Translations under genes and position numbers: made by a program | IMG/VR virus record: IMGVR_UViG_2541047787_000003 | Span: 1 to 9,992 of that record | Origin: a virus | Taxonomy: Duplodnaviria; Heunggongvirae; Uroviricota; Caudoviricetes | Length of the DNA: 9,992 nt | Reading direction: 5' to 3' (one strand) | In this document: in pieces, positions 1-9,992 of the stretch | Numbering within the stretch: position 1 is the first letter of the stretch | Layout: each line of letters starts with the position of its first letter | The notes under the pieces: generated by a model | What the model saw: the letters and a program-made list of their open reading frames with translations, nothing else | What the model was told of the DNA's origin: nothing | Database searches by the model: none

Positions 1-672
1 ATGGCAGCGACGCACACACTCCCTCTGGCGTCACCGGGCATGGCGCGCATCTGCCTTTACGGGGATTTACAACGATTTGGCCGCCGCATCGACCTTCGTG
101 TGAAAACGGGGGCTGAAGCCATCCGCGCACTGGCCACACAGCTCCCGGCGTTTCGTCAGAAACTGAGCGACGGCTGGTATCAGGTACGGATTTCCGGGCG
201 GGACGTCAGCACGTCCGGATTGACGGCGCAGTTACATGAGGTTCTGCCTGACGGCGCTGTGATTCATATTGTTCCCAGAGTCGCCGGGGCCAAGTCAGGG
301 GGCGTATTCCAGATTGTCCTGGGAGCAGCCGCCATTGCCGGATCATTCTTTACCGCCGGAGCCACCCTTGCAGCATGGGGGGCAGCCATTGGGGCCGGTG
401 GTATGACCGGCATCCTGTTTTCTCTCGGTGCCAGTATGGTACTTGGTGGTGTGGCGCAGATGCTGGCACCGAAAGCCAGAACTCCCCGTACACAGACAAC
501 GGATAACGGCAAACAAAACACGTATTTCTCCTCACTGGATAACATGGTTGCCCAGGGCAATGTTCTGCCCGTTCTGTACGGTGAAATGCGCGTGGGGTCG
601 CGGGTGGTATCTCAGGAAATCAGCACGGCAGACGAAGGGGACGGTGGTCAGGTTGTGGTGATTGGTCGCTGA
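1..672 (+). CDS. I: Tail assembly protein I (lambda gpI-like), complete 223-aa ORF
   Basis: ORF starts at ATG position 1 and ends at TGA 670-672. The translation (MAATHTLPLASPGMARICLYGDLQRFGRRIDLRVKTGAEAIRALATQLP...EGDGGQVVVIGR) matches lambda gpI as I recall it, including the Gly/Ala-rich hydrophobic middle. It sits directly upstream of J, as in lambda. Confidence 0.9.
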   Translation: MAATHTLPLASPGMARICLYGDLQRFGRRIDLRVKTGAEAIRALATQLPAFRQKLSDGWYQVRISGRDVSTSGLTAQLHEVLPDGAVIHIVPRVAGAKSGGVFQIVLGAAAIAGSFFTAGATLAAWGAAIGAGGMTGILFSLGASMVLGGVAQMLAPKARTPRTQTTDNGKQNTYFSSLDNMVAQGNVLPVLYGEMRVGSRVVSQEISTADEGDGGQVVVIGR

Positions 673-690
673 TGCAAAACATTTTATGTG

Positions 691-718
691 AAACCGCCTG
701 CGGGCGGTTTTGTCGTTT
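691..718 (+). terminator. Intergenic I-J stem-loop followed by a T-rich tract (terminator-like hairpin or RNA stability element)
   Basis: aaaccgcc (691-698) pairs perfectly with ggcggttt (703-710) around the 4-nt loop tgcg, followed by tgtcgttt. It lies between two co-transcribed late genes, so it may act only as a partial terminator, pause or processing site. Confidence 0.3.
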
Positions 719-732
719 ATGGAGCGTGAGGA

Positions 733-3700
733 ATGGGTAAAGGCAGCAGTAAGGGGCATACCCCGCGCGAAGCGAAGGACAACCTGAAATCATCCCAGAT
801 GCTGAGCGTGATAGACGCCATCAGTGAAGGGCCGATTGAAGGTCCGGTGGATGGATTAAAAAGCGTACTGCTGAACAGTACGCCGGTGCTGGACAGTGAG
901 GGGAATACCAACATCGCCGGTGTCACGGTGGTGTTCCGGGCTGGTGAGCAGGAGCAGACTCCGCCGGAGGGATTTGAATCCTCCGGCTCCGAGACGGTGC
1001 TGGGTACGGAAGTGAAATATGACACGCCGATCACCCGGACCATCACGTCGGCAAACATTGACCGACTGCGTTTTACTTTCGGCGTGCAGGCACTGGTGGA
1101 AACCACCTCAAAGGGGGACAGGAATCCATCGGAAGTCCGCCTGCTGGTTCAGATACAACGTAACGGTGGCTGGGTGACGGAAAAGGACATCACCATTAAG
1201 GGTAAAACCACTTCACAGTATCTGGCCTCGGTGGTGGTGGATAACCTGCCGCCGCGCCCGTTCAGTATCCGGATGCGCAGGATGACGCCGGACAGCACCA
1301 CAGACCAGCTGCAGAACAAAACGCTCTGGTCGTCATACACCGAAATTATCGATGTGAAACAGTGCTACCCGAACACGGCACTGGTCGGCGTGCAGGTGGA
1401 CTCGGAGCAGTTCGGCAGCCAGCAGGTGAGCCGTAATTATCATCTTCGCGGGCGCATTCTGCAGGTGCCGTCGAACTATAACCCGCAGACGCGGCAATAC
1501 AGCGGTATCTGGGACGGAACGTTTAAGCCAGCATACAGCAACAACATGGCCTGGTGTCTGTGGGATATGCTGAACCATCCGCGCTACGGCATGGGGAAAC
1601 GTCTTGGTGCAGCAGATGTGGATAAATGGGCGCTGTATGTCATCGGCCAGTACTGCGACCAGTCGGTGCCGGACGGCTTTGGCGGCACGGAGCCGCGCAT
1701 CGCCTGTAATGCGTACCTGACCACACAGCGAAAGGCGTGGGATGTGCTCAGTGATTTCTGCTCGGCGATGCGCTGTATGCCGGTATGGAACGGGCAGACG
1801 CTGACATTCGTGCAGGACCGACCGTCGGATAAGGTGTGGACCTATAACCGCAGTAATGTGGTGATGCCGGATGATGGCGCGCCGTTCCGCTACAGCTTCA
1901 GCGCCCTGAAAGACCGCCATAATGCCGTTGAGGTGAACTGGATTGACCCGAACAACGGCTGGGAGACGGCGACAGAGCTTGTGGAGGATACGCAGGCTAT
2001 TGCCCGTTACGGTCGTAACGTCACGAAGATGGATGCTTTTGGCTGTACCAGCCGGGGGCAGGCACACCGCGCCGGGCTGTGGCTGATTAAAACAGAGCTG
2101 CTGGAAACGCAGACCGTGGACTTCAGCGTGGGCGCAGAAGGGCTTCGCCATGTGCCGGGCGATGTTATTGAAATCTGTGATGATGACTATGCCGGTATCA
2201 GCATCGGCGGGCGCGTGCTGGCGGTAAACAGCCAGACCCGGACGCTGACGCTCGACCGTGAAATCACGCTACCATCCTCCGGTACCACGCTGATAAGCCT
2301 GGTTGACGGAAGTGGCAATCCGGTCAGCGTGGAGGTTCAGTCCGTCACCGACGGCGTGAAGGTAAAAGTGAGCCGTGTTCCTGACGGCGTTGCCGGATAC
2401 AGCGTGTGGGGGCTGAAGTTGCCGACGCTGCGTCAGCGCCTGTTCCGCTGTGTGAGTATCCGTGAGAACGATGACGGCACGTATGCCATCACTGCCGTGC
2501 AGCATGTGCCGGAAAAAGAGGCCATCGTGGATAACGGGGCGCACTTTGACGGTGACCAGAGCGGCACGGTGAATGGTGTCACGCCGCCAGCAGTGCAGCA
2601 TCTGACCGCCGAAGTCACTGCAGACAGCGGGGAATATCAGGTGCTGGCGCGCTGGGACACACCGAAGGTGGTGAAGGGCGTGAGCTTCCTGCTCCGTCTG
2701 ACCGTGACAGCGGATGACGGCAGTGAGCGGCTGGTCAGCACGGCCCGGACGACGGAAACCACATACCGCTTCAGGCAGCTGGCGCTGGGGAACTACAGGC
2801 TGACAGTCCGGGCGGTAAATGCGTGGGGGCAGCAGGGAGATCCGGCGTCGGTATCGTTCCGGATTGCCGCACCGGCAGCACCGTCGAGGATTGAGCTGAC
2901 GCCGGGCTATTTTCAGATAACCGCCACGCCGCATCTTGCGGTTTATGATCCGACGGTACAGTTTGAGTTCTGGTTCTCGGAAAAGCGGATTGCGGATATC
3001 AGGCAGGTTGAAACCACAGCCCGCTATCTTGGTACGGCGCTGTACTGGATAGCCGCCAGTATCAATATCAAACCGGGCCATGATTATTACTTTTATATCC
3101 GCAGTGTGAACACCGTAGGCAAATCGGCATTTGTGGAGGCCGTCGGTCGGGCGAGCGATGATGCATCCGGCTATCTGGATTTTTTCAAAGGCGAGATAGG
3201 GAAAACCCATCTGGCTCAGGAGCTGTGGACGCAGATTGATAACGGTCAGCTTGCGCCTGACCTGGCTGAAATCAGGACGTCCATTACGGATGTCAGCAAT
3301 GAAATCACGCAGACCGTCAATAAGAAACTGGAAGACCAGAGTGCGGCAATTCAGCAGATACAGAAGGTTCAGGTTGATACAAATAATAACCTGAACAGCA
3401 TGTGGGCTGTGAAGCTGCAGCAGATGCAGGACGGACGCCTTTATATCGCGGGTATTGGTGCCGGTATTGAGAACACCCCTGACGGCATGCAGAGTCAGGT
3501 GCTGCTGGCGGCGGACAGGATTGCGATGGTTAATCCTGCGAATGGCAACACAAAACCGATGTTTGTTGGTCAGGGCGATCAGATATTCATGAACGACGTG
3601 TTCCTGAAACGCCTGACGGCTCCCACCATTACCAGCGGTGGAAATCCACCGGCATTTTCCCTGACACCGGACGGGCGACTGACGGCGAAAAATGCGGATA

Positions 3701-4212
3701 TCAGTGGCAGTGTGAATGCGAACGCCGGGACGCTCAACAATGTCACGATTAATGAAAACTGTCGGGTTCTGGGAAAACTGTCTGCGAACCAGATTGAAGG
3801 CGATCTCGTTAAAACAGTGGGCAAAGCTTTCCCCCGGGACTCCCGTGCACCGGAGCGGTGGCCATCAGGGACCATTACCGTCAGGGTTTATGACGATCAG
3901 CCGTTTGACCGGCAGATTGTTATTCCCGCGGTGGCGTTTCGTGGCGCTAAACATGAGCGGGAGAATAACGATATTTATTCGTCATGCCGCCTGATAGTGA
4001 AGAAAAACGGTGCTGAAATTTATAACCGTACCGCGCTGGATAATACGCTGGTTTATACAGGTGTTATTGATATGCCTGCTGGTCGCGGTCACATGACGCT
4101 GGAGTTTTCGGTATCAGCGTGGCTGGTAAATGACTGGTATCCCACAGCCAGTATCAGTGATTTGCTGGTTGTGGTGATGAAGAAATCCACAGCAGGTATC
4201 ACGATTAGCTGA
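733..4212 (+). CDS. J: Host specificity protein J (central tail fiber / tip attachment protein), 1159 aa
   Basis: ATG at 733 preceded by an RBS-like ggagcgtgagga. The long ORF translation ([20 protein letters not shown]...[55 protein letters not shown]...) matches lambda gpJ through the N-terminal and central parts as I recall them. Gene order I-J-lom is as in lambda. Confidence 0.95.
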
Positions 4213-4232
4213 ATTTTCATAACCCATATGCG

Positions 4233-4259
4233 GGCGCCATTTCTGGCGCCTTTTTTATT
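4233..4259 (+). terminator. Rho-independent terminator downstream of J (tJ-like)
   Basis: Palindromic GC stem ggcgcca (4233-4239) / tggcgcc (4244-4250) with loop tttc, immediately followed by ttttttatt (4251-4259). It starts 21 nt after the J stop. Confidence 0.7.
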
Positions 4260-4280
4260 GCAGAAAAGCGAGAGGTAATT

Positions 4281-4880
4281 ATGCGTAAAGTTTGTGCAGC
4301 CATTTTGTCCGCAGCCATCTGTCTGGCCGTATCCGGTGCGCCTGCATGGGCGTCTGAGCAGCAGGCCACACTGAGCGCAGGGTATCTTCATGCCCGTACG
4401 AACGCTCCCGGCAGCGATAATCTGAACGGGATTAACGTGAAATACCGTTATGAGTTTACGGACACGCTGGGGCTGATTACGTCATTCAGTTATGCCAACG
4501 CTGAAGATGAGCAAAAAACGCATTACAGCGATACCCGCTGGCATGAGGATTCCGTGCGTAACCGCTGGTTCAGCGTGATGGCGGGGCCGTCTGTGCGCGT
4601 GAATGAATGGTTCAGCGCGTATGCGATGGCAGGCGTGGCTTACAGCCGTGTGTCGACTTTTTCCGGGGATTATCTCCGCGTAACTGACAACAAGGGAAAA
4701 ACGCACGACGTGCTGACCGGAAGTGATGACGCTCGCCACAGTAACACCTCTCTGGCGTGGGGAGCTGGCGTGCAGTTTAACCCGACCGAATCCGTGGCCG
4801 TTGATGTCGCTTATGAAGGCTCCGGCAGTGGCAACTGGCGCACTGACGGGTTCATCGTGGGTGTCGGTTATAAGTTCTGA
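4281..4880 (+). CDS. lom: Outer membrane protein Lom (Ail/Lom family beta-barrel), 199 aa with N-terminal signal peptide
   Basis: ATG at 4281 with RBS gagagg 7 nt upstream. The translation starts MRKVCAAILSAAICLAVSGAPAWA (a signal peptide with an AxA cleavage motif) and ends ...DGFIVGVGYKF with a C-terminal aromatic residue, typical of outer-membrane beta-barrels. It matches lambda Lom as I recall it, in the same position after J. Confidence 0.9.
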   Translation: MRKVCAAILSAAICLAVSGAPAWASEQQATLSAGYLHARTNAPGSDNLNGINVKYRYEFTDTLGLITSFSYANAEDEQKTHYSDTRWHEDSVRNRWFSVMAGPSVRVNEWFSAYAMAGVAYSRVSTFSGDYLRVTDNKGKTHDVLTGSDDARHSNTSLAWGAGVQFNPTESVAVDVAYEGSGSGNWRTDGFIVGVGYKF

Positions 4881-4906
4881 TTAGCCAGGTAACACAGTGT
4901 TATGAC

Positions 4907-4934
4907 AGCCCGCCGGTTCAGGCGGGCTTTTTTG
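4907..4934 (+). terminator. Rho-independent terminator downstream of lom
   Basis: Stem agcccgcc (4907-4914) / ggcgggct (4921-4928) with loop ggttca, followed by tttttgt (4929-4935). It lies between the lom stop and the side tail fiber start. Confidence 0.65.
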
Positions 4935-4944
4935 TGGGGTGAAT

Positions 4945-7900
4945 ATGGCAGTAAAGATTTCAGGTGTACTGAAAGACGGTGCAGGTAAACCGGTACAGAA
5001 CTGCACAATCCAGCTGAAAGCAAAACGTAACAGCACCACGGTGGTGGTGAACACGGTGGCATCTGAAAATCCGGATGAAGCCGGGCGTTACAGCATGGAC
5101 GTTGAGTACGGTCAGTACAGCGTTATTCTGTTGGTGGAAGGATTCCCGCCGTCACATGCCGGGACCATCACCGTGTATGAAGATTCCCGACCCGGTACGC
5201 TGAATGATTTTCTCGGTGCCATGACGGAGGATGATGCCCGTCCGGAGGCACTGCGCCGCTTTGAACTGATGGTGGAAGAGGTGGCGCGTAACGCGTCCGC
5301 AGTGGCGCAGAACACAGCAGCCGCGAAGAAGTCAGCCAGCGATGCCGGCACATCAGCCCGTGAGGCGGCAACCCGTGCGACTGATGCTGCAGGCTCAGCA
5401 CGTGCAGCCAGCACGTCAGCCGGACAGGCCGCGTCGTCGGCTCAGTCAGCGTCTTCCAGCGCAGGAACGGCATCAGCAAAGGCTACTGAAGCATCAAAAA
5501 GTGCTGCCGCTGCAGAGTCTTCAAAAAGCGCGGCAGCCACCAGTGCCGGTGCAGCGAAAACGTCGGAAATGAATGCCGCAGCATCACAAAAATCTGCGGC
5601 CACATCTGCATCCACCGCGACCACGAAAGCGTCAGAAGCTGCCACCTCAGCCCGGGATGCGTCGGCTTCAAAAGTGGCGGCAAAATCATCAGAAACGAGC
5701 GCTGCCTCGAGCGCCGGCAGTGCAGCTTCCTCGGCAACGGCAGCAGGAAATTCCGCGAAGGCCGCAAAAACGTCTGAGACGAATGCGGATAACAGCGCAC
5801 AGGCGGCAGCAGACTCACAAACTGCATCGGCAAACTCCGCGACAGCAGCCAAAAAATCAGAAACCAACGCGAAAAATAGTGAGTCAGCAGCAAAGGTCAG
5901 CGAAACCAACGCTAAAGCGTCAGAGAACAAGGCGAAAGAATATCTCGACAAGGTCGGGGGACTCGTCAGCCCGATGACGCAATACGATTGGCCTGTTGTT
6001 ACTGCTAGTGAGTCTCTTTACATCAAGATCGCGAAACTTTCCGATCCTGGAACCAGCAGAAGTCATGTAACGCTAATGGTTACTAACGCTGGTAACTACG
6101 GCTCCCCTTACGGAAACATTGACTTTATCGAGATCTCGGCGCGCGGTCTGCCTTCTTTGCTTAGTGCGGATAATGTTTCTCGTCATCTGAGTATACGCCG
6201 CTTAGGGTCAACCGGGCTGACCGATAACAACCAGATGCGTTACGGCCTGGTTAAAGGTGACGGCTTTATTGAGGTTTGGGCATTCCAGGGTGCGTTTATT
6301 AACGACGCAAAGGTTGCGGTGCTGGCGCAGACAACACTAAACACAGAATTATACATTCCAGACGGATTTGTTAAGCAAACCGCCGCGCCTTCTGGATATA
6401 TTGAAGGCAACGTTGTAAGGATTTACGACCAGGTAAACAAGCCGACTAAAGCAGATTTGGGTCTTTCTAATGCTATGCTTACAGGCGCTTTCGGTCTTGG
6501 CGGTAGCGGGATATCAACAAACGGCAAGATGAGCGATGTAGAGATCTTAAAAGCTCTGCGTGACAAAGGTGGTCATTTCTGGCGCGGTGATAAGCCGACC
6601 GGAAGCACGGCGACCATTTATAGCCACGGTTCTGGTATATTCTCGCGGTGCGGCGATACGTGGTCAGCGATCAATATCGACTACTCAACCGCGAAGATTA
6701 AGATCTATGCCGGCAACGATGCCCGGCTTAACAACGGGACTTTTAGCGTCAATGAGCTATACGGCTCGGCAAACAAGCCGTCGAAATCGGATGTTGGACT
6801 TGGCAACGTAACGAACGATGCGCAGGTAAAAAAAACCGGCGATACAATGACCGGTGACTTGACAATCAAAAAAGGTACACCGTCAGTCTTCCTGCGGGCA
6901 GACAGTGGAGTCACCGCTTTGCGGTTTTATACTGGCGATAACACAGAGCGCGGCATAATCTATGCTGGTCCTAACACTGATTCGCTTGGCGAAGTTCGCA
7001 TCAGGGCAAAGACAGCAGGGGGGACATCAGGAGGGGATCTTGTTGTTCGTCACGACGGGAGGGTTGAAGTCCGTGATCTCACAGTAGCGTATAAAATTAA
7101 AAGCAGAACGATTGAGATTGCAAATACCGACACTGACTCATCGGCAACTACGCTAAGCATCTATGGAGTACAGCACACGCCGTTGGTTTTAACGCGTTCT
7201 GGTTCTTCTGAAAATGTGTCCATTGGGTTTAAGTTAGACAACATGAACCCAAAGTATCTTGGAATTGATACTAATGGGGATCTGGCTTTTGGTGAGAGTC
7301 CTGATCAGAAACAAAACAGCAAATTGATCACGCAAGCGAAACTCGACAAGGGATTAACGATTGGTGGTCAACTGGCTTTCAAAGGTACGACAGCGTTTTC
7401 AGCCGTTGCTACGTTCAGTGCCGGGATAGCAGGAGCCATCGAGCCGGAAAACATTGACGGCCAGACGGTTAATCTTAACAACCTGACCATCATCAAGTCA
7501 GATGCCGGGGCAGTTAAATACTATATTTGTCCATCCTCTGCAGGTGGTGCAAATATCACCAACAAGCCTGACGGCGTAACAGGTAACTTTTTGCTCCGTG
7601 TTGAATCGACTCGTAAGGTTAGGGATTCAGATTATGCGAACATGCAAACGCTGATTAACAGCGACACAAAACGTATATACGTTCGCTTTGTTGTTAATGG
7701 AAACTGGACAGCGTGGAGTCAGGTTGTTGTTTCCGGATGGAATCAGGATGTAACCGTCAGGTCGTTAACCTCGACGACTCCATCAAAATTAGGTGGCGGG
7801 CGGATTGATGTGCTTGGAAGTACGTCAGATTATGGCAGCATGAATTGTACCGTTCGTGGTGTTGATAGCACTGGAACCAATTCGGCGTGGTCGGTAGGCA

Positions 7901-8724
7901 CATCAGAAAGCACAGGCAAAATGTTGTTCCTGAAAAACCACAGAAGCAGCGCTCAAGTGCTGTTAAATGGCGATGATGGCGCGGTTCAACTACTAAGTGG
8001 CACTGTTAACGGTGCTACAGCGCAGGCGCTAACCATCAACAAAGATGAGGTTAACTCAACTGCCGATTTAGTAATTAGAAAACAAACAGGGACTGGCAAT
8101 CGTTTTGCTTTACTTAATTCAGGTAATTCAGAACTACCAGTTAGTATCAGGGTGTGGGGTTCCAGTACTCGACAAAACGTTTTTGAGGTTGGCACGTCTG
8201 CTGCGTATCTGTTTTATGCGCAAAAAACAACAGACGGGCAAAACCTTACTGTAAACGGAAGTGTTAACTGCACCACACTGAATCAGTCATCAGACCGCAG
8301 ACTGAAAGAAAATATCGAGATTATCGATAACGCGACTGACGCAATCCGCAAAATTAATGGATACACGTACACGCTCAAGGAGAATGGGGCACATTGCGCC
8401 GGGGTTATAGCCCAGGAAGTTGAAGAGGCCATCCCGGAGGCCGTTGGTTCATTCATCCATTACGGTGAAGAGTTGCAAGGTCCGACCGTTGACGGCAACG
8501 AGCTACGCGAAGAAACGCGCTATCTTAATGTTGACTACGCCGCCGTGACGGGCTTACTTGTTCAGTTCGCCCGTGAAACAGATGATCGCGTTACCGCGCT
8601 GGAAGAGGAAAACACAACGCTACGTCAAAATCTGGCAACAGCAGACACCCGGATCAGCACTCTGGAAAATCAGGTAAGCGAACTGGTTGCACTTGTCCGG
8701 CAGTTAACAGGAAGCGAACATTGA
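4945..8724 (+). CDS. stf: Side tail fiber protein, chimeric: lambda Stf-like N-terminus, Ala/Ser-rich shaft, divergent distal receptor-binding region, and C-terminal self-cleaving intramolecular chaperone domain
   Basis: The ORF track calls 4939-8724 from a GTG, but the ATG at 4945 gives MAVKISGVLKDGAGKPVQNCTIQLKA..., which matches the lambda Stf N-terminus as recalled and has a ggggtg RBS upstream. The distal part carries fiber-type motifs (NKPSKSDVGLGNVTNDAQVKKTGDTMTGDLTI). The C-terminus carries the S-D-R-R-L-K-E-N motif and a terminal coiled coil typical of peptidase S74 chaperone domains. Confidence 0.85.
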   Translation: MAVKISGVLKDGAGKPVQNCTIQLKAKRNSTTVVVNTVASENPDEAGRYSMDVEYGQYSVILLVEGFPPSHAGTITVYEDSRPGTLNDFLGAMTEDDARPEALRRFELMVEEVARNASAVAQNTAAAKKSASDAGTSAREAATRATDAAGSARAASTSAGQAASSAQSASSSAGTASAKATEASKSAAAAESSKSAAATSAGAAKTSEMNAAASQKSAATSASTATTKASEAATSARDASASKVAAKSSETSAASSAGSAASSATAAGNSAKAAKTSETNADNSAQAAADSQTASANSATAAKKSETNAKNSESAAKVSETNAKASENKAKEYLDKVGGLVSPMTQYDWPVVTASESLYIKIAKLSDPGTSRSHVTLMVTNAGNYGSPYGNIDFIEISARGLPSLLSADNVSRHLSIRRLGSTGLTDNNQMRYGLVKGDGFIEVWAFQGAFINDAKVAVLAQTTLNTELYIPDGFVKQTAAPSGYIEGNVVRIYDQVNKPTKADLGLSNAMLTGAFGLGGSGISTNGKMSDVEILKALRDKGGHFWRGDKPTGSTATIYSHGSGIFSRCGDTWSAINIDYSTAKIKIYAGNDARLNNGTFSVNELYGSANKPSKSDVGLGNVTNDAQVKKTGDTMTGDLTIKKGTPSVFLRADSGVTALRFYTGDNTERGIIYAGPNTDSLGEVRIRAKTAGGTSGGDLVVRHDGRVEVRDLTVAYKIKSRTIEIANTDTDSSATTLSIYGVQHTPLVLTRSGSSENVSIGFKLDNMNPKYLGIDTNGDLAFGESPDQKQNSKLITQAKLDKGLTIGGQLAFKGTTAFSAVATFSAGIAGAIEPENIDGQTVNLNNLTIIKSDAGAVKYYICPSSAGGANITNKPDGVTGNFLLRVESTRKVRDSDYANMQTLINSDTKRIYVRFVVNGNWTAWSQVVVSGWNQDVTVRSLTSTTPSKLGGGRIDVLGSTSDYGSMNCTVRGVDSTGTNSAWSVGTSESTGKMLFLKNHRSSAQVLLNGDDGAVQLLSGTVNGATAQALTINKDEVNSTADLVIRKQTGTGNRFALLNSGNSELPVSIRVWGSSTRQNVFEVGTSAAYLFYAQKTTDGQNLTVNGSVNCTTLNQSSDRRLKENIEIIDNATDAIRKINGYTYTLKENGAHCAGVIAQEVEEAIPEAVGSFIHYGEELQGPTVDGNELREETRYLNVDYAAVTGLLVQFARETDDRVTALEEENTTLRQNLATADTRISTLENQVSELVALVRQLTGSEH
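5280..5950 (+). repeat. Low-complexity Ala/Ser/Thr/Lys-rich repetitive coding region (fiber shaft) within stf
   Basis: About 220 aa dominated by A, S, T and K with recurring K-x-S-E-(T/M)-N-A units, for example aaaacgtcggaaatgaatgcc, aaaacgtctgagacgaatgcg, aaaaaatcagaaaccaacgcg and aaggtcagcgaaaccaacgct. This explains the many spurious overlapping ORFs called here in other frames. Confidence 0.6.
8293..8721 (+). other. Predicted C-terminal intramolecular chaperone / autoproteolytic domain (peptidase S74-like) of the tail fiber, about 143 aa, released after trimerisation
   Basis: Motif NQSS|DRRLKENIEIID (codons at 8281-8319) has the Ser and Lys spaced 5 residues apart, as in the catalytic Ser-Lys dyad of endosialidase-type chaperone domains. 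It is followed by ...YLNVDYAAVTGLL... and a terminal heptad-like stretch RVTALEEENTTLRQNLATADTRISTLENQVSELVALVRQL. Confidence 0.6.
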
Positions 8725-8907
8725 TATCCTTCAAGCTCTGAAGGAGGCTGTTCCCGGTACGTTCAGACTGTTGTTGAGCTGGAAATCGCAACGGAGGAAG
8801 AAACCTTGTTGCTGGAAGCCTGGAAAAAGTATCGGGTGTTGCTGAACCGTGTTGATACATCAACTGCACCTGATATTGAGTGGCCTACGAACCCTGTCAG
8901 GGAGTAA
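8725..8907 (+). pseudogene. tfa: Remnant of a tail fiber assembly (tfa) gene 3' end, with no start codon
   Basis: The 60 codons immediately after the stf stop, in the same frame, read [60 protein letters not shown]. The ...[25 protein letters not shown]... portion is the conserved C-terminal signature of Tfa-family assembly chaperones as I recall it. There is no ATG/GTG/TTG start in this frame and no N-terminal Tfa domain. Confidence 0.6.
8779..8862 (+). repeat. Direct repeat copy A (tfa 3'-end sequence), partner at 9828-9911
   Basis: ctggaaatcgcaacggaggaagaaa (8779-8803) is identical to 9828-9852. Similarity continues through ...tatcgggtgttgctgaaccgtgttgatacatca, which pairs with ...tatcgggtattgttgaatcgagttgatacatca; by eye roughly 80% identical over about 84 nt. 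Confidence 0.7.
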
Positions 8908-8921
8908 TCATTGGGATTATG

Positions 8922-8954
8922 CCGCAGCACGTCTTAAGCAAGAACGTGCTGCGG
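8922..8954. other. Strong hairpin (11-bp perfect inverted repeat) at the convergent junction between the tfa remnant and the methyltransferase gene; possible bidirectional terminator
   Basis: ccgcagcacgt (8922-8932) and acgtgctgcgg (8944-8954) are exact reverse complements around an 11-nt loop. A T-run (8965-8970) follows on the + strand but overlaps the methyltransferase codons, so it is not a canonical terminator. Confidence 0.4.
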
Positions 8955-8961
8955 TTGGATG

Positions 8962-9630
8962 CTATTTTTTCCCTGAAGCGGAAAACATTACTACAGTACC
9001 TTGAACCTTGGTTTTAACATTCTCGAAATGCTCTGAGAGTATATGTGTTAAGCCTTCTTCGGAATCTTTTGTGTTTGAAAAGATACCTTTCTGATTGTAA
9101 ATGCGCATCAGTTTTTGACCGAAGCTATTGTGCACAACTCCATCGCCAAGAATTGTGGCTCCGTATAGAGTTCCATCGTCAGTTAAGGCCTGCGCCGCAT
9201 TGCGTATTACACAGCATTTTGTAGATATATTTCCAGGCAGGCAGTGAAGAAGGTAAAACATGGAAATGGAATCAAATTGACCATGTAACGCCGCGGGATA
9301 AGGTTCAAAAACATCATGGTTAATTTTATGTTTAATTTTTGATTCCCCAGCCCTTGTAGATGCCGCGTTCAGGCTAGCTTCGTTCAAATCCATTAAAGAT
9401 ATCAGACTACTCTCAGGTACGTGAGTAAGGTAAAACCCAGTTCCAACACCAATATCCAGATGGTTGTTACCTAAATGTTCCAGAAAGTGTGGAAGAAGGT
9501 GTTCCTTTGTAGGACATCCCCATGCAAGCCGATTTGATACTCCCAAAACCCACCAGTCATAAAGCTTTAGGGTAAGTGGTGTGTAAATTTTAGCCCCATC
9601 ATCTGTGTTTTTTTTCATTAATTTCACCAT
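8962..9630 (-). CDS. Class I SAM-dependent methyltransferase, 222 aa, substrate unknown; AT-rich cargo (moron) gene
   Basis: Minus-strand ORF from ATG (9628-9630) to TAG (8962-8964). It has Rossmann-fold methyltransferase motifs: motif I HLDIGVGTGFYL (GxGxG), an acidic residue ending beta-2 (LISLMDLNEAS), and motif II FDSISMFYLLHCLPG. No DPPY/NPPY or PCQ/ENV DNA-methyltransferase motifs were seen. Composition is visibly AT-richer than I, J and lom, and orientation is opposite to the late operon. Confidence 0.75.
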   Translation of the reverse strand: MVKLMKKNTDDGAKIYTPLTLKLYDWWVLGVSNRLAWGCPTKEHLLPHFLEHLGNNHLDIGVGTGFYLTHVPESSLISLMDLNEASLNAASTRAGESKIKHKINHDVFEPYPAALHGQFDSISMFYLLHCLPGNISTKCCVIRNAAQALTDDGTLYGATILGDGVVHNSFGQKLMRIYNQKGIFSNTKDSEEGLTHILSEHFENVKTKVQGTVVMFSASGKK

Positions 9631-9659
9631 GTTATAGTTTTATTTGTGAATTAAATCAA
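9631..9659 (-). promoter_or_regulatory. Candidate sigma70-type promoter for the methyltransferase gene
   Basis: On the minus strand: TTGATT (complement of 9654-9659), a 17-nt spacer, then TATAAC (complement of 9631-9636), immediately upstream of the start. The region is AT-rich so chance matches are likely, and the leader would be very short unless the second ATG (9616-9618, giving MKKN...) is the true start. Confidence 0.25.
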
Positions 9660-9686
9660 TTATGGCGATGAATTACAAGGGGTTAA

Positions 9687-9992
9687 ATGCTGCCGCAGCA
9701 TAGCGATATTGAAATAGCATGGTATGCTTCGATACAGCAGGAGCCGAATGGCTGGAAGACCGTCACCACACAGTTCTACATCCAGGAATTCAGTGAGTAT
9801 ATTGCGCCACTGCAGGATGCTGTAGATCTGGAAATCGCAACGGAGGAAGAAAGATCGTTGCTGGAGGCATGGAATAAATATCGGGTATTGTTGAATCGAG
9901 TTGATACATCAGTAGCTCTGGGTATGAAGCTGTTTGTAACTCATGTTACAGTAACAGCCATTACTATCTCGAAGGTGCAAAATGTATATTGA
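9687..9992 (+). CDS. Small Tfa-like protein (tail fiber assembly C-terminal motif with divergent tail), 101 aa; possibly a truncated or alternative tfa
   Basis: ATG at 9687 with RBS aagggg 5-6 nt upstream; stop TGA at 9990-9992. The translation contains ...[29 protein letters not shown]..., homologous to the Tfa C-terminal signature, but then diverges ([26 protein letters not shown]) and lacks the terminal APDIEWP motif. It is too short for a full Tfa. Confidence 0.5.
9828..9911 (+). repeat. Direct repeat copy B (tfa 3'-end sequence), partner at 8779-8862
   Basis: See copy A. The 25-nt core ctggaaatcgcaacggaggaagaaa is identical, with flanking similarity to ...gttgatacatca. Confidence 0.7.

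Follow-up and report, generated by a model that had tools for sequence, protein, structure and literature searches.

The methyltransferase gene near the end of the 9,992-nt viral sequence analysed here (the window) was an intact allele of Escherichia coli K-12 ybcY (b0562). The encoded protein was 100% identical to RefSeq WP_000239871.1 ('class I SAM-dependent methyltransferase') and matched phrog_2132 over profile positions 1-218 of 218 (E = 1.2e-155). The segment 8700-9992 was 100% identical to the chromosome of E. coli CFS3273, where it belongs to a DLP12-type prophage and is followed by an alpha/beta hydrolase gene, ompT, envY, ybcH, nfrA and cusS. The gene is not new, and the initial annotation overstated its novelty: it is ybcY, long annotated across thousands of genomes, and its PHROG has no known function. 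With rather better than even confidence, we read it as a self-contained small-molecule methyltransferase moron, which would have its own, probably H-NS-silenced promoter and would benefit the lysogen. The features of the locus are listed in Table 1.

Table 1. Features of the window, by position, with the strand and the basis of each assignment.
Feature	Position	Strand	Basis or remark
Lambda_tail_I	1-672	+	Profile match
gpJ	733-4212	+	Profile match; all domains present
Ail/Lom	4281-4880	+	Profile match
Side tail fibre (stf)	4939-8724	+	1,261 aa; prophage tail-fibre N-terminal domain, C-terminal Peptidase_S74 self-chaperone domain
Decayed tfa remnant	8725-8907	+	Directly after the stf stop; no start codon; C-terminal ~45 Tfa residues
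Perfect 11-bp inverted repeat (hairpin)	8922-8954		Between the late-operon end and the methyltransferase stop
RefSeq-annotated methyltransferase CDS	8962-9630	-	222 aa; ATG start in the ORF listing
Methyltransferase CDS from the probable true start Met5	8962-9618	-	218 aa; homologue and PHROG 2132 starts, strain A33, model
SAM-binding motif I, HLDIGVGTG	9436-9462	-	Residues 57-65; invariant in the 58-sequence alignment
Putative Shine-Dalgarno sequence, GGTGA	9624-9628	-	5 nt upstream of the Met5 ATG; read from the sequence
Candidate sigma-70 promoter, TTGATT-17-TATAAC	9631-9659	-	-35 at 9654-9659, -10 at 9631-9636; hexamers as in K-12
Second candidate promoter, TTAACC-16-CATAAT	9659-9686	-	Consensus scan
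TfaX-like ORF	9687-9992	+	101 aa; divergent from the methyltransferase gene; C-terminal Tfa part only

In K-12 MG1655, ybcY is annotated as a pseudogene between tfaD and tfaX, upstream of appY and ompT. The DNA of the two alleles was 99% identical. The K-12 lesion was a 2-bp deletion, from ATGAAAAAAAAC to AT--AAAAAAAC, which destroyed the Met5 ATG and shifted the frame relative to the upstream ATG; the identical lesion occurred in 2 further genomes. The initial annotation had named disruption in close relatives as a reason to give up its reading. Such disruption was found in the K-12 lineage only, and the allele was intact in 9 of the 12 loci inspected in E. coli, Shigella and E. albertii. The publications consulted that name ybcY gave no function, and searches of the literature with the accession numbers and the PHROG identifier were empty. 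In the single assay found, knocking out ybcY in K-12 was without effect, and the K-12 allele was already a pseudogene. Because the K-12 copy is dead, neither knockout collections nor screens in K-12 can inform on ybcY.

The true start of the methyltransferase is probably Met5 (ATG at 9618-9616), giving a protein of 218 aa. Met5 was the first aligned residue in all 57 of the 57 homologues in a 58-sequence alignment, and the PHROG 2132 profile (218 positions) also began there. In E. coli A33, ACG replaces the annotated upstream ATG, and PGAP calls a 218-aa protein at that locus. Given these homologue and profile starts, the A33 substitution and the spacing of the GGTGA sequence, the shorter coding sequence in Table 1 is the most likely one. 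Met5 is also favoured by the position of the first candidate promoter: its -10 hexamer directly adjoins the annotated ATG at 9630, so that transcription would be expected to begin downstream of this codon. An A8 tract follows Met5; phase variation through it was considered and rejected, since the tract length was constant across all intact alleles inspected. Matches to Pfam families, 2,296 homologues and purifying selection (see below) made this ORF far more than a chance reading frame.

The window represents the late or tail end of a lambda-like prophage, in which the other long ORFs matching known phage families were all on the plus strand. The 222-aa ORF is thus directed against the late operon, as the initial annotation had described, and the AT-richness it had reported was also borne out: the GC content of the ORF was 40.5% (GC3 35%) vs 56.4% over positions 1-4900 and 48% in the C-terminal part of stf, so that a difference from the flanking phage DNA was present. 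Just 1% of 669-bp windows across the sequence had a lower GC content than the ORF. The same annotation had placed the gene between a decayed tfa remnant and a Tfa-like small ORF, and translation, the Caudo_TAP profile and PGAP identified both as tfa remnants. PGAP labels both pieces incomplete tail fibre assembly proteins. The TfaX-like ORF, the counterpart of K-12 tfaX, matched Caudo_TAP at profile positions 75-121 only and also matched phrog_2341. Both remnants contained a 99-bp direct repeat (8764-8862 and 9813-9911, 84% identical). A 10-nt direct repeat, TGCCGCAGCA (8920 and 9691), was considered as the ends of a cassette and rejected, as chance alone would yield about one exact match of this kind per 1.5 kb. 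A search of the locus for structured RNA yielded only sub-threshold Rfam IS009 matches, which reflected the repeated tfa sequence.

The methyltransferase gene and the TfaX-like ORF are separated by 56 bp; the sequence of this spacer and its promoter hexamers were identical to those of K-12. In the K-12 ybcY/tfaX spacer, Shimada et al. observed an in-vitro genomic-SELEX peak of RpoD holoenzyme, with the same hexamers predicted, and the spacer is flagged as H-NS bound (PMC3946193). H-NS silencing of the predicted ybcY promoter is likely, and since the segment is AT-rich, expression is probably kept low by H-NS. The promoter consensus scan gave 2 sites vs 3.0 expected by chance. The gene had been proposed to have its own promoter and to be expressed from the lysogen. 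The first part agrees with the in-vitro RpoD site of the K-12 allele, as the same hexamers occur here; the part concerning in-vivo expression did not find support, and a literature search returned no in-vivo transcription evidence for an intact allele. The hairpin had a fold energy of -28.3 kcal/mol on the plus strand and -23.6 kcal/mol on the minus strand (z about -5), with a U-run on the plus strand only, and is probably a terminator that separates two convergent transcripts. For the methyltransferase transcript, the scan called no intrinsic terminator, and the hairpin had no U-tract on the minus strand.

With thresholds of at least 95% DNA identity over at least 80% of the ORF length, the gene was carried by 3,799 of 5,426 complete E. 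coli genomes (~70%), with up to 4 copies per genome. It was also present in 14 sequenced lambdoid phages at a protein identity of at least 98.6% (2G7b, ev243, Turner, Kati, the PhiR series and others), and no other record among 50,697 phage genomes gave a full-length match. In phage 2G7b, the gene order was stf, tfa, methyltransferase (minus strand), tfa fragment, alpha/beta hydrolase (minus), ompT (minus) and int, which is the classic cargo region between tail fibres and attachment site. The same slot held other cargo in relatives, consistent with the cargo hotspot downstream of the tail fibre genes of lambdoid prophages that had been suggested for this position. K-12 contained appY in this slot. 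In an O157 strain, genes for a Mn-catalase, two ferritin-like proteins and a general stress protein had been inserted beside the methyltransferase gene, which was followed by an IS66 element. Strain A33 had lost the prophage almost entirely and kept the intact methyltransferase gene and ompT, with an integrase fragment and the tRNA gene argU as immediate neighbours; the linkage to ompT outlasts prophage decay. In the plaque-forming phage Ayreon, position 8997 was joined straight to 9657, a clean 659-bp deletion that left the last 36 bp of the gene. The phage can therefore do without the gene, and its absence is the derived condition. The atypical GC content, the spacer between divergent genes, for which an in-vitro RpoD site was mapped in K-12, the hairpin after the stop and the Ayreon deletion together fit the pattern of a moron.

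The protein matched Pfam Methyltransf_12 (E = 5.5e-9), Methyltransf_23 and Methyltransf_11 above their cut-offs, and Methyltransf_25 just under its cut-off. The family alignment of 58 sequences contained 54 invariant columns, including the SAM-binding motifs. D81 and D106 were invariant in all 58 sequences and may contact the ribose and the adenine of SAM, respectively; Asp73 of Rt-PmtA is a class I precedent for such a role of an acidic residue at the SAM site. Three further invariant motifs were an N-terminal one specific to the family (Y16...Y24-D-W-W-V-L...N33..W37.C39.T41), one following beta-4 (Y126-L-x-H129-C-L-P-G) and a C-terminal one (G-A-T...H167-N...Y178-N..G-I-F-x-N..D). An AlphaFold2 model built from the same alignment (mean pLDDT 90.9, pTM 0.88) placed three N-terminal helices (residues 9-51) above a Rossmann core of seven strands and showed a conserved helix-loop-helix insert (169-199) before the last two strands. 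According to the modelled seven-stranded sheet and the motifs, the protein is a class I Rossmann SAM-dependent methyltransferase; Pfam, structure prediction and Foldseek all agreed with the initial annotation of a class I enzyme with intact SAM motifs.

The nearest solved folds found with Foldseek included PmtA, JHAMT, PfPMT, NNMT, CouO and SgvM. The ranking was flat, and most of the nearest folds were small-molecule methyltransferases (PmtA, DhpI, JHAMT, UbiG, PfPMT). Sequence-profile matches among solved structures were JHAMT (E = 1.2e-5) and UbiG (E about 2e-3), both restricted to the SAM core. No specific NCBIfam model was matched: those for CpaM, RquA and PmtA gave 16-17 bits vs cut-offs of 175-390. 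The protein could not be placed in the quinone methyltransferase family (UbiE/Coq5, UbiG, RquA), since the RquA model scored 16.4 bits vs a cut-off of 175.

In a database of 5.8 billion proteins, 2,296 homologues were detected, and 1,322 among the 50%-identity representatives. A single 222-aa protein cluster had 6,589 member sequences. The dN/dS values against orthologues were 0.06-0.21 where dS was unsaturated, which indicates purifying selection. A scan of one genome per species located relatives in 269 stretches. The best 80 of these 269, all at 50% identity or more, came from Enterobacterales (among them Yersinia pestis, Erwinia amylovora, Proteus, Providencia, Morganella, Photorhabdus and Pantoea), Pasteurellaceae, the Pseudomonas syringae, cichorii and viridiflava groups, Xanthomonadales and Oxalobacteraceae. 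In the 9 loci inspected (Salmonella, Enterobacter, Yersinia, Aeromonas, Citrobacter and Acidobacteria), the gene was mostly monocistronic and stand-alone. Some settings were ordinary chromosomal ones, beside liv ABC transporter genes in Enterobacter and between an ArnT-like gene and cybB in Salmonella, and some homologues adjoined integrases, transposases or island cargo of the DinI, CdiI or PerC type. A conserved operon partner was sought by clustering the ORFs within 4 kb at the best 80 of the 269 loci and rejected, as synteny was at the genus level only; the neighbour clusters that crossed genera were SDR and LysR, two very abundant families whose presence is probably due to chance. Enterobacterial copies were AT-rich wherever they were located (39-47% GC). 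Distant representatives were fused to cytochrome P450, PilZ or RCC1 domains. The product appears to be a self-sufficient enzyme whose gene was mobilised repeatedly.

The favoured scenario is that of a single-gene moron, which DLP12/lambda-like phages would have acquired from the chromosome of a gammaproteobacterium, in the cargo region behind their tail fibre genes. Its product is predicted to be a compact cytoplasmic class I enzyme, with the N-terminal helices acting as a lid over the Rossmann core, that would need no partner protein. The most likely methyl acceptor appears to be an N or O atom in a small molecule, such as a metabolite, a xenobiotic or a lipid head group; the enzyme could be an N-, O- or C-methyltransferase, and DNA is an unlikely substrate. 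The gene would be transcribed in antisense to the late operon, from a sigma-70 promoter of its own that lies in the spacer between it and tfaX, and any benefit would accrue to the lysogen and not to phage growth. A small-molecule substrate is favoured by the structural and sequence neighbours, together with the absence of DNA-methylase motifs, of a defence match and of a relation to YmfD.

Alternatively, the substrate might be a macromolecule (an rRNA or tRNA base, a ribosomal protein or an elongation factor), whose methylation would alter translation or the drug or phage sensitivity of the lysogen. Family members have a median pI of 8.9; this mildly basic character is compatible with RNA or membrane binding and, together with the flat list of neighbours, leaves room for RNA or protein substrates. 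However, the top structural and sequence neighbours were mostly small-molecule enzymes, the protein has no RNA-binding or target-recognition extension, none of the NCBIfam rRNA or tRNA methyltransferase models was matched and the present copy is near neutral (pI 6.9). We therefore regard a macromolecular substrate as unlikely.

A role as a single-gene anti-phage defence or counter-defence, for example through methylation of a signalling nucleotide or of a phage or host component that blocks superinfection, was considered quite improbable. Defence genes are common in the cargo hotspots of prophages, the homologues lay repeatedly beside integrases, transposases or DinI- or CdiI-type cargo, and the Proteus copy adjoins genes that, judged by eye, resemble IbrA/IbrB. 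Yet the search against known defence systems (PADLOC-DB v2) gave nothing better than a marginal match to mad2 (E = 0.0025, 14.7 bits) and no conserved partner genes, and many orthologues reside in ordinary chromosomal contexts devoid of mobile elements (Enterobacter, Salmonella P0096, Pseudomonas). The identity of at least 50% across Gammaproteobacteria and the low dN/dS are also unlike those of arms-race genes.

The resemblance to PmtA is the most specific lead to a substrate. It would imply a phospholipid N-methyltransferase that converts phosphatidylethanolamine (PE) to its mono- and dimethyl forms or to phosphatidylcholine (PC). Lysogenic conversion would then act on the membrane of wild E. 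coli and would be invisible in K-12 with its broken gene. Two invariant tyrosines near the N-terminus, Y16 and Y24, could be the counterparts of Tyr10 and Tyr17 in Rt-PmtA, whose active site includes Tyr10, Ser120 and His147. To our knowledge, E. coli is not known to make methylated PE or PC. The R-type PmtA (PDB 8ys9) shared 15-17% identity with the ybcY product, with a negligible margin over other methyltransferases: its lead over unrelated small-molecule enzymes was less than 1 Z unit. The NCBIfam PmtA model (NF045882) scored 16.2 bits vs a cut-off of 390 and aligned with residues 56-127, the SAM core, only. In Rt-PmtA, a C-terminal helix is reported to be functionally important, and the helix and Arg residues bind the membrane; the model of the ybcY product ends in two beta strands and has no such helix. 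On balance, a PmtA-like activity seems very improbable.

It is hardly credible that the gene is a decaying, non-functional passenger like the tfa fragments around it. The K-12 pseudogene, the Ayreon deletion and the decayed surroundings would fit such a fate, but the gene was intact in most of the inspected loci and survived in the minimal DLP12 remnant of A33; the low dN/dS, the invariance of all SAM-binding motifs and the size of the 222-aa cluster are equally at odds with decay. An orphan DNA methyltransferase, either Dam-like or the remnant of a restriction-modification system, can be practically dismissed: phages often carry orphan DNA methylases and the modelled class I SAM fold would suit one, but the translation contained neither the (D/N/S)PP(Y/F/W) motif of the N6-adenine/N4-cytosine class nor the PCQ motif of the C5-cytosine class, the Pfam families N6_N4_Mtase, MethyltransfD12, N6_Mtase and DNA_methylase were not matched, and the 218 aa amount essentially to the core fold, with no target-recognition domain. 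The statement that DNA-methylase motifs are lacking stands, as the sole ENV tripeptide (residues 203-205) was isolated, not conserved in the family and not paired with a PCQ motif. Motifs, Pfam matches and genomic context thus support the initial annotation in treating the gene as cargo and not as an ordinary restriction-modification or Dam-like methylase.

The small-molecule reading can be extended, as a speculation that we hold to be doubtful: the YbcY family might represent a methyltransferase that has so far escaped recognition, is widely conserved in Gammaproteobacteria and acts on a common small molecule of the cell or its environment, perhaps a lipid head group as with PmtA, most natural E. 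coli acquiring the gene through DLP12/lambda-like prophages. If so, a lysogenic-conversion trait affecting membrane chemistry, or detoxifying a metabolite of the host or of a competitor, would have been missed through the 2-bp frameshift in K-12 and H-NS silencing. In the accessory genome of E. coli, ybcY encodes one of the commonest uncharacterised enzymes, and O157 and UPEC strains are among its carriers. Knowing what the enzyme methylates would close a gap in annotation and might bring a lysogenic-conversion trait to light. The initial annotation was a correct re-discovery of an annotated gene and not the description of a new kind of system, and the gene is a reasonable target for enzyme discovery.

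K-12 ybcY, WP_000239871.1 and PHROG 2132 represent the same gene in the same tfaD-ybcY-tfaX-ompT context, and the present copy is distinguished from that of K-12 by being intact, whereas the K-12 copy lacks the Met5 ATG. YmfD of the K-12 prophage e14, a putative SAM-dependent methyltransferase of 221 aa, is also prophage-borne, uncharacterised and of the same size, but its sequence is unrelated; paralogy was rejected as BLASTP detected no similarity (E = 15). The likeness to the small-molecule O- and C-methyltransferases UbiG, UbiE/Coq5 and JHAMT was confined to the SAM core (profile positions about 41-163), and the family motifs YDWWVL...N..AW.C (N-terminal) and HN.FG.KLM..YN.KGIFSN (C-terminal) were specific to the YbcY family. 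With the morons found behind the tail fibre genes of lambdoid phages (lom, bor, ompT, appY and effector loci), ybcY shared the niche, the AT-richness, the opposite orientation, a predicted promoter of its own and the capacity to be lost by the phage. While those morons have known roles in the envelope, virulence or regulation, ybcY encodes an enzyme with no known substrate.

The site of the methyltransferase gene is a variable cargo hotspot. In E. coli O157 FDAARGOS_293 (positions 2290-8362 of comparison locus L025), genes for a Mn-catalase, two ferritin-like proteins and a general stress protein were inserted at this slot, between tfa and the methyltransferase gene, which was followed by an IS66 element. 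In E. coli A33 (NZ_CP028742.1; positions 2870-5854 of locus L024), all that remained of the DLP12 prophage was the tRNA-Arg gene, fragments of integrase and tfa genes, ompT and an intact methyltransferase gene encoding 218 aa. The methyltransferase gene and ompT, both cargo genes, survived the loss of the phage in this strain.

In the plaque-forming phage Ayreon (MF807953; positions 3033-3036 of locus L016), window position 8997 directly abutted 9657. This clean 659-bp deletion (window 8998-9656) removed the methyltransferase ORF together with its -10 region and spared the final 36 bp of coding sequence, a remnant that was also the sole match in E. coli CH4797. In K-12, ybcY has lost 2 bp at the Met5 ATG, adjoining an A8 tract; two other E. 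coli genomes carried this allele. There was no sign of phase variation at the A8 tract, the length of which was constant across intact alleles.

Features in and around the methyltransferase slot (window coordinates)
Feature	Position	Strand	Remarks
Side tail fibre (stf), 1,261 aa	4939-8724	+	C-terminal Peptidase_S74 domain
IS009 (RF02111) match, first tfa remnant	8664-8864	+	95 bits
45-aa hypothetical protein WP_001309429.1	8880-9017	+	RefSeq annotation
Inverted repeat	8922-8954		between late-operon end and methyltransferase stop codon; perfect 11 bp, 11-nt loop
Site of the K-12 ybcY lesion	9616-9630	-	
IS009 (RF02111) match, second tfa remnant	9710-9913	+	107 bits

The inverted repeat between the two converging transcription units formed a highly stable hairpin (-28 kcal/mol, z = -5), with a U-run 9 nt beyond it on the + strand only. 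The hairpin likely serves to terminate the convergent transcripts, but it was not called in a consensus terminator scan of the window. WP_001309429.1, the ORF of which spans the hairpin and overlaps the methyltransferase 3' end on the opposite strand, is probably a spurious call.

The Peptidase_S74 domain of the side tail fibre (residues 1118-1169), an intramolecular chaperone, preceded a coiled coil. A fibre that acts as its own chaperone does not require Tfa, in keeping with the decayed state of the tfa genes downstream. PGAP split stf into a pseudogene and a fragment in strain CFS3273. At both tfa remnants, Rfam IS009 matched below its gathering score of 117; rather than a structured RNA, these matches probably mirror the repeated tfa sequence that defined this sRNA candidate.

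Among distant representatives of the methyltransferase family, fusions to a cytochrome P450 (P0244, 719 aa), a PilZ domain (P0261, 388 aa) and RCC1 repeats (P0167, 743 aa) were found, which weakly suggest that other lineages use small-molecule chemistry and control by c-di-GMP. In six Proteus loci, the methyltransferase orthologue adjoined genes for a PAPS-reductase-like and a ParB-like protein, an arrangement conserved only within Proteus. Judged by eye from their sequences, these two neighbours appear to resemble IbrA and IbrB.
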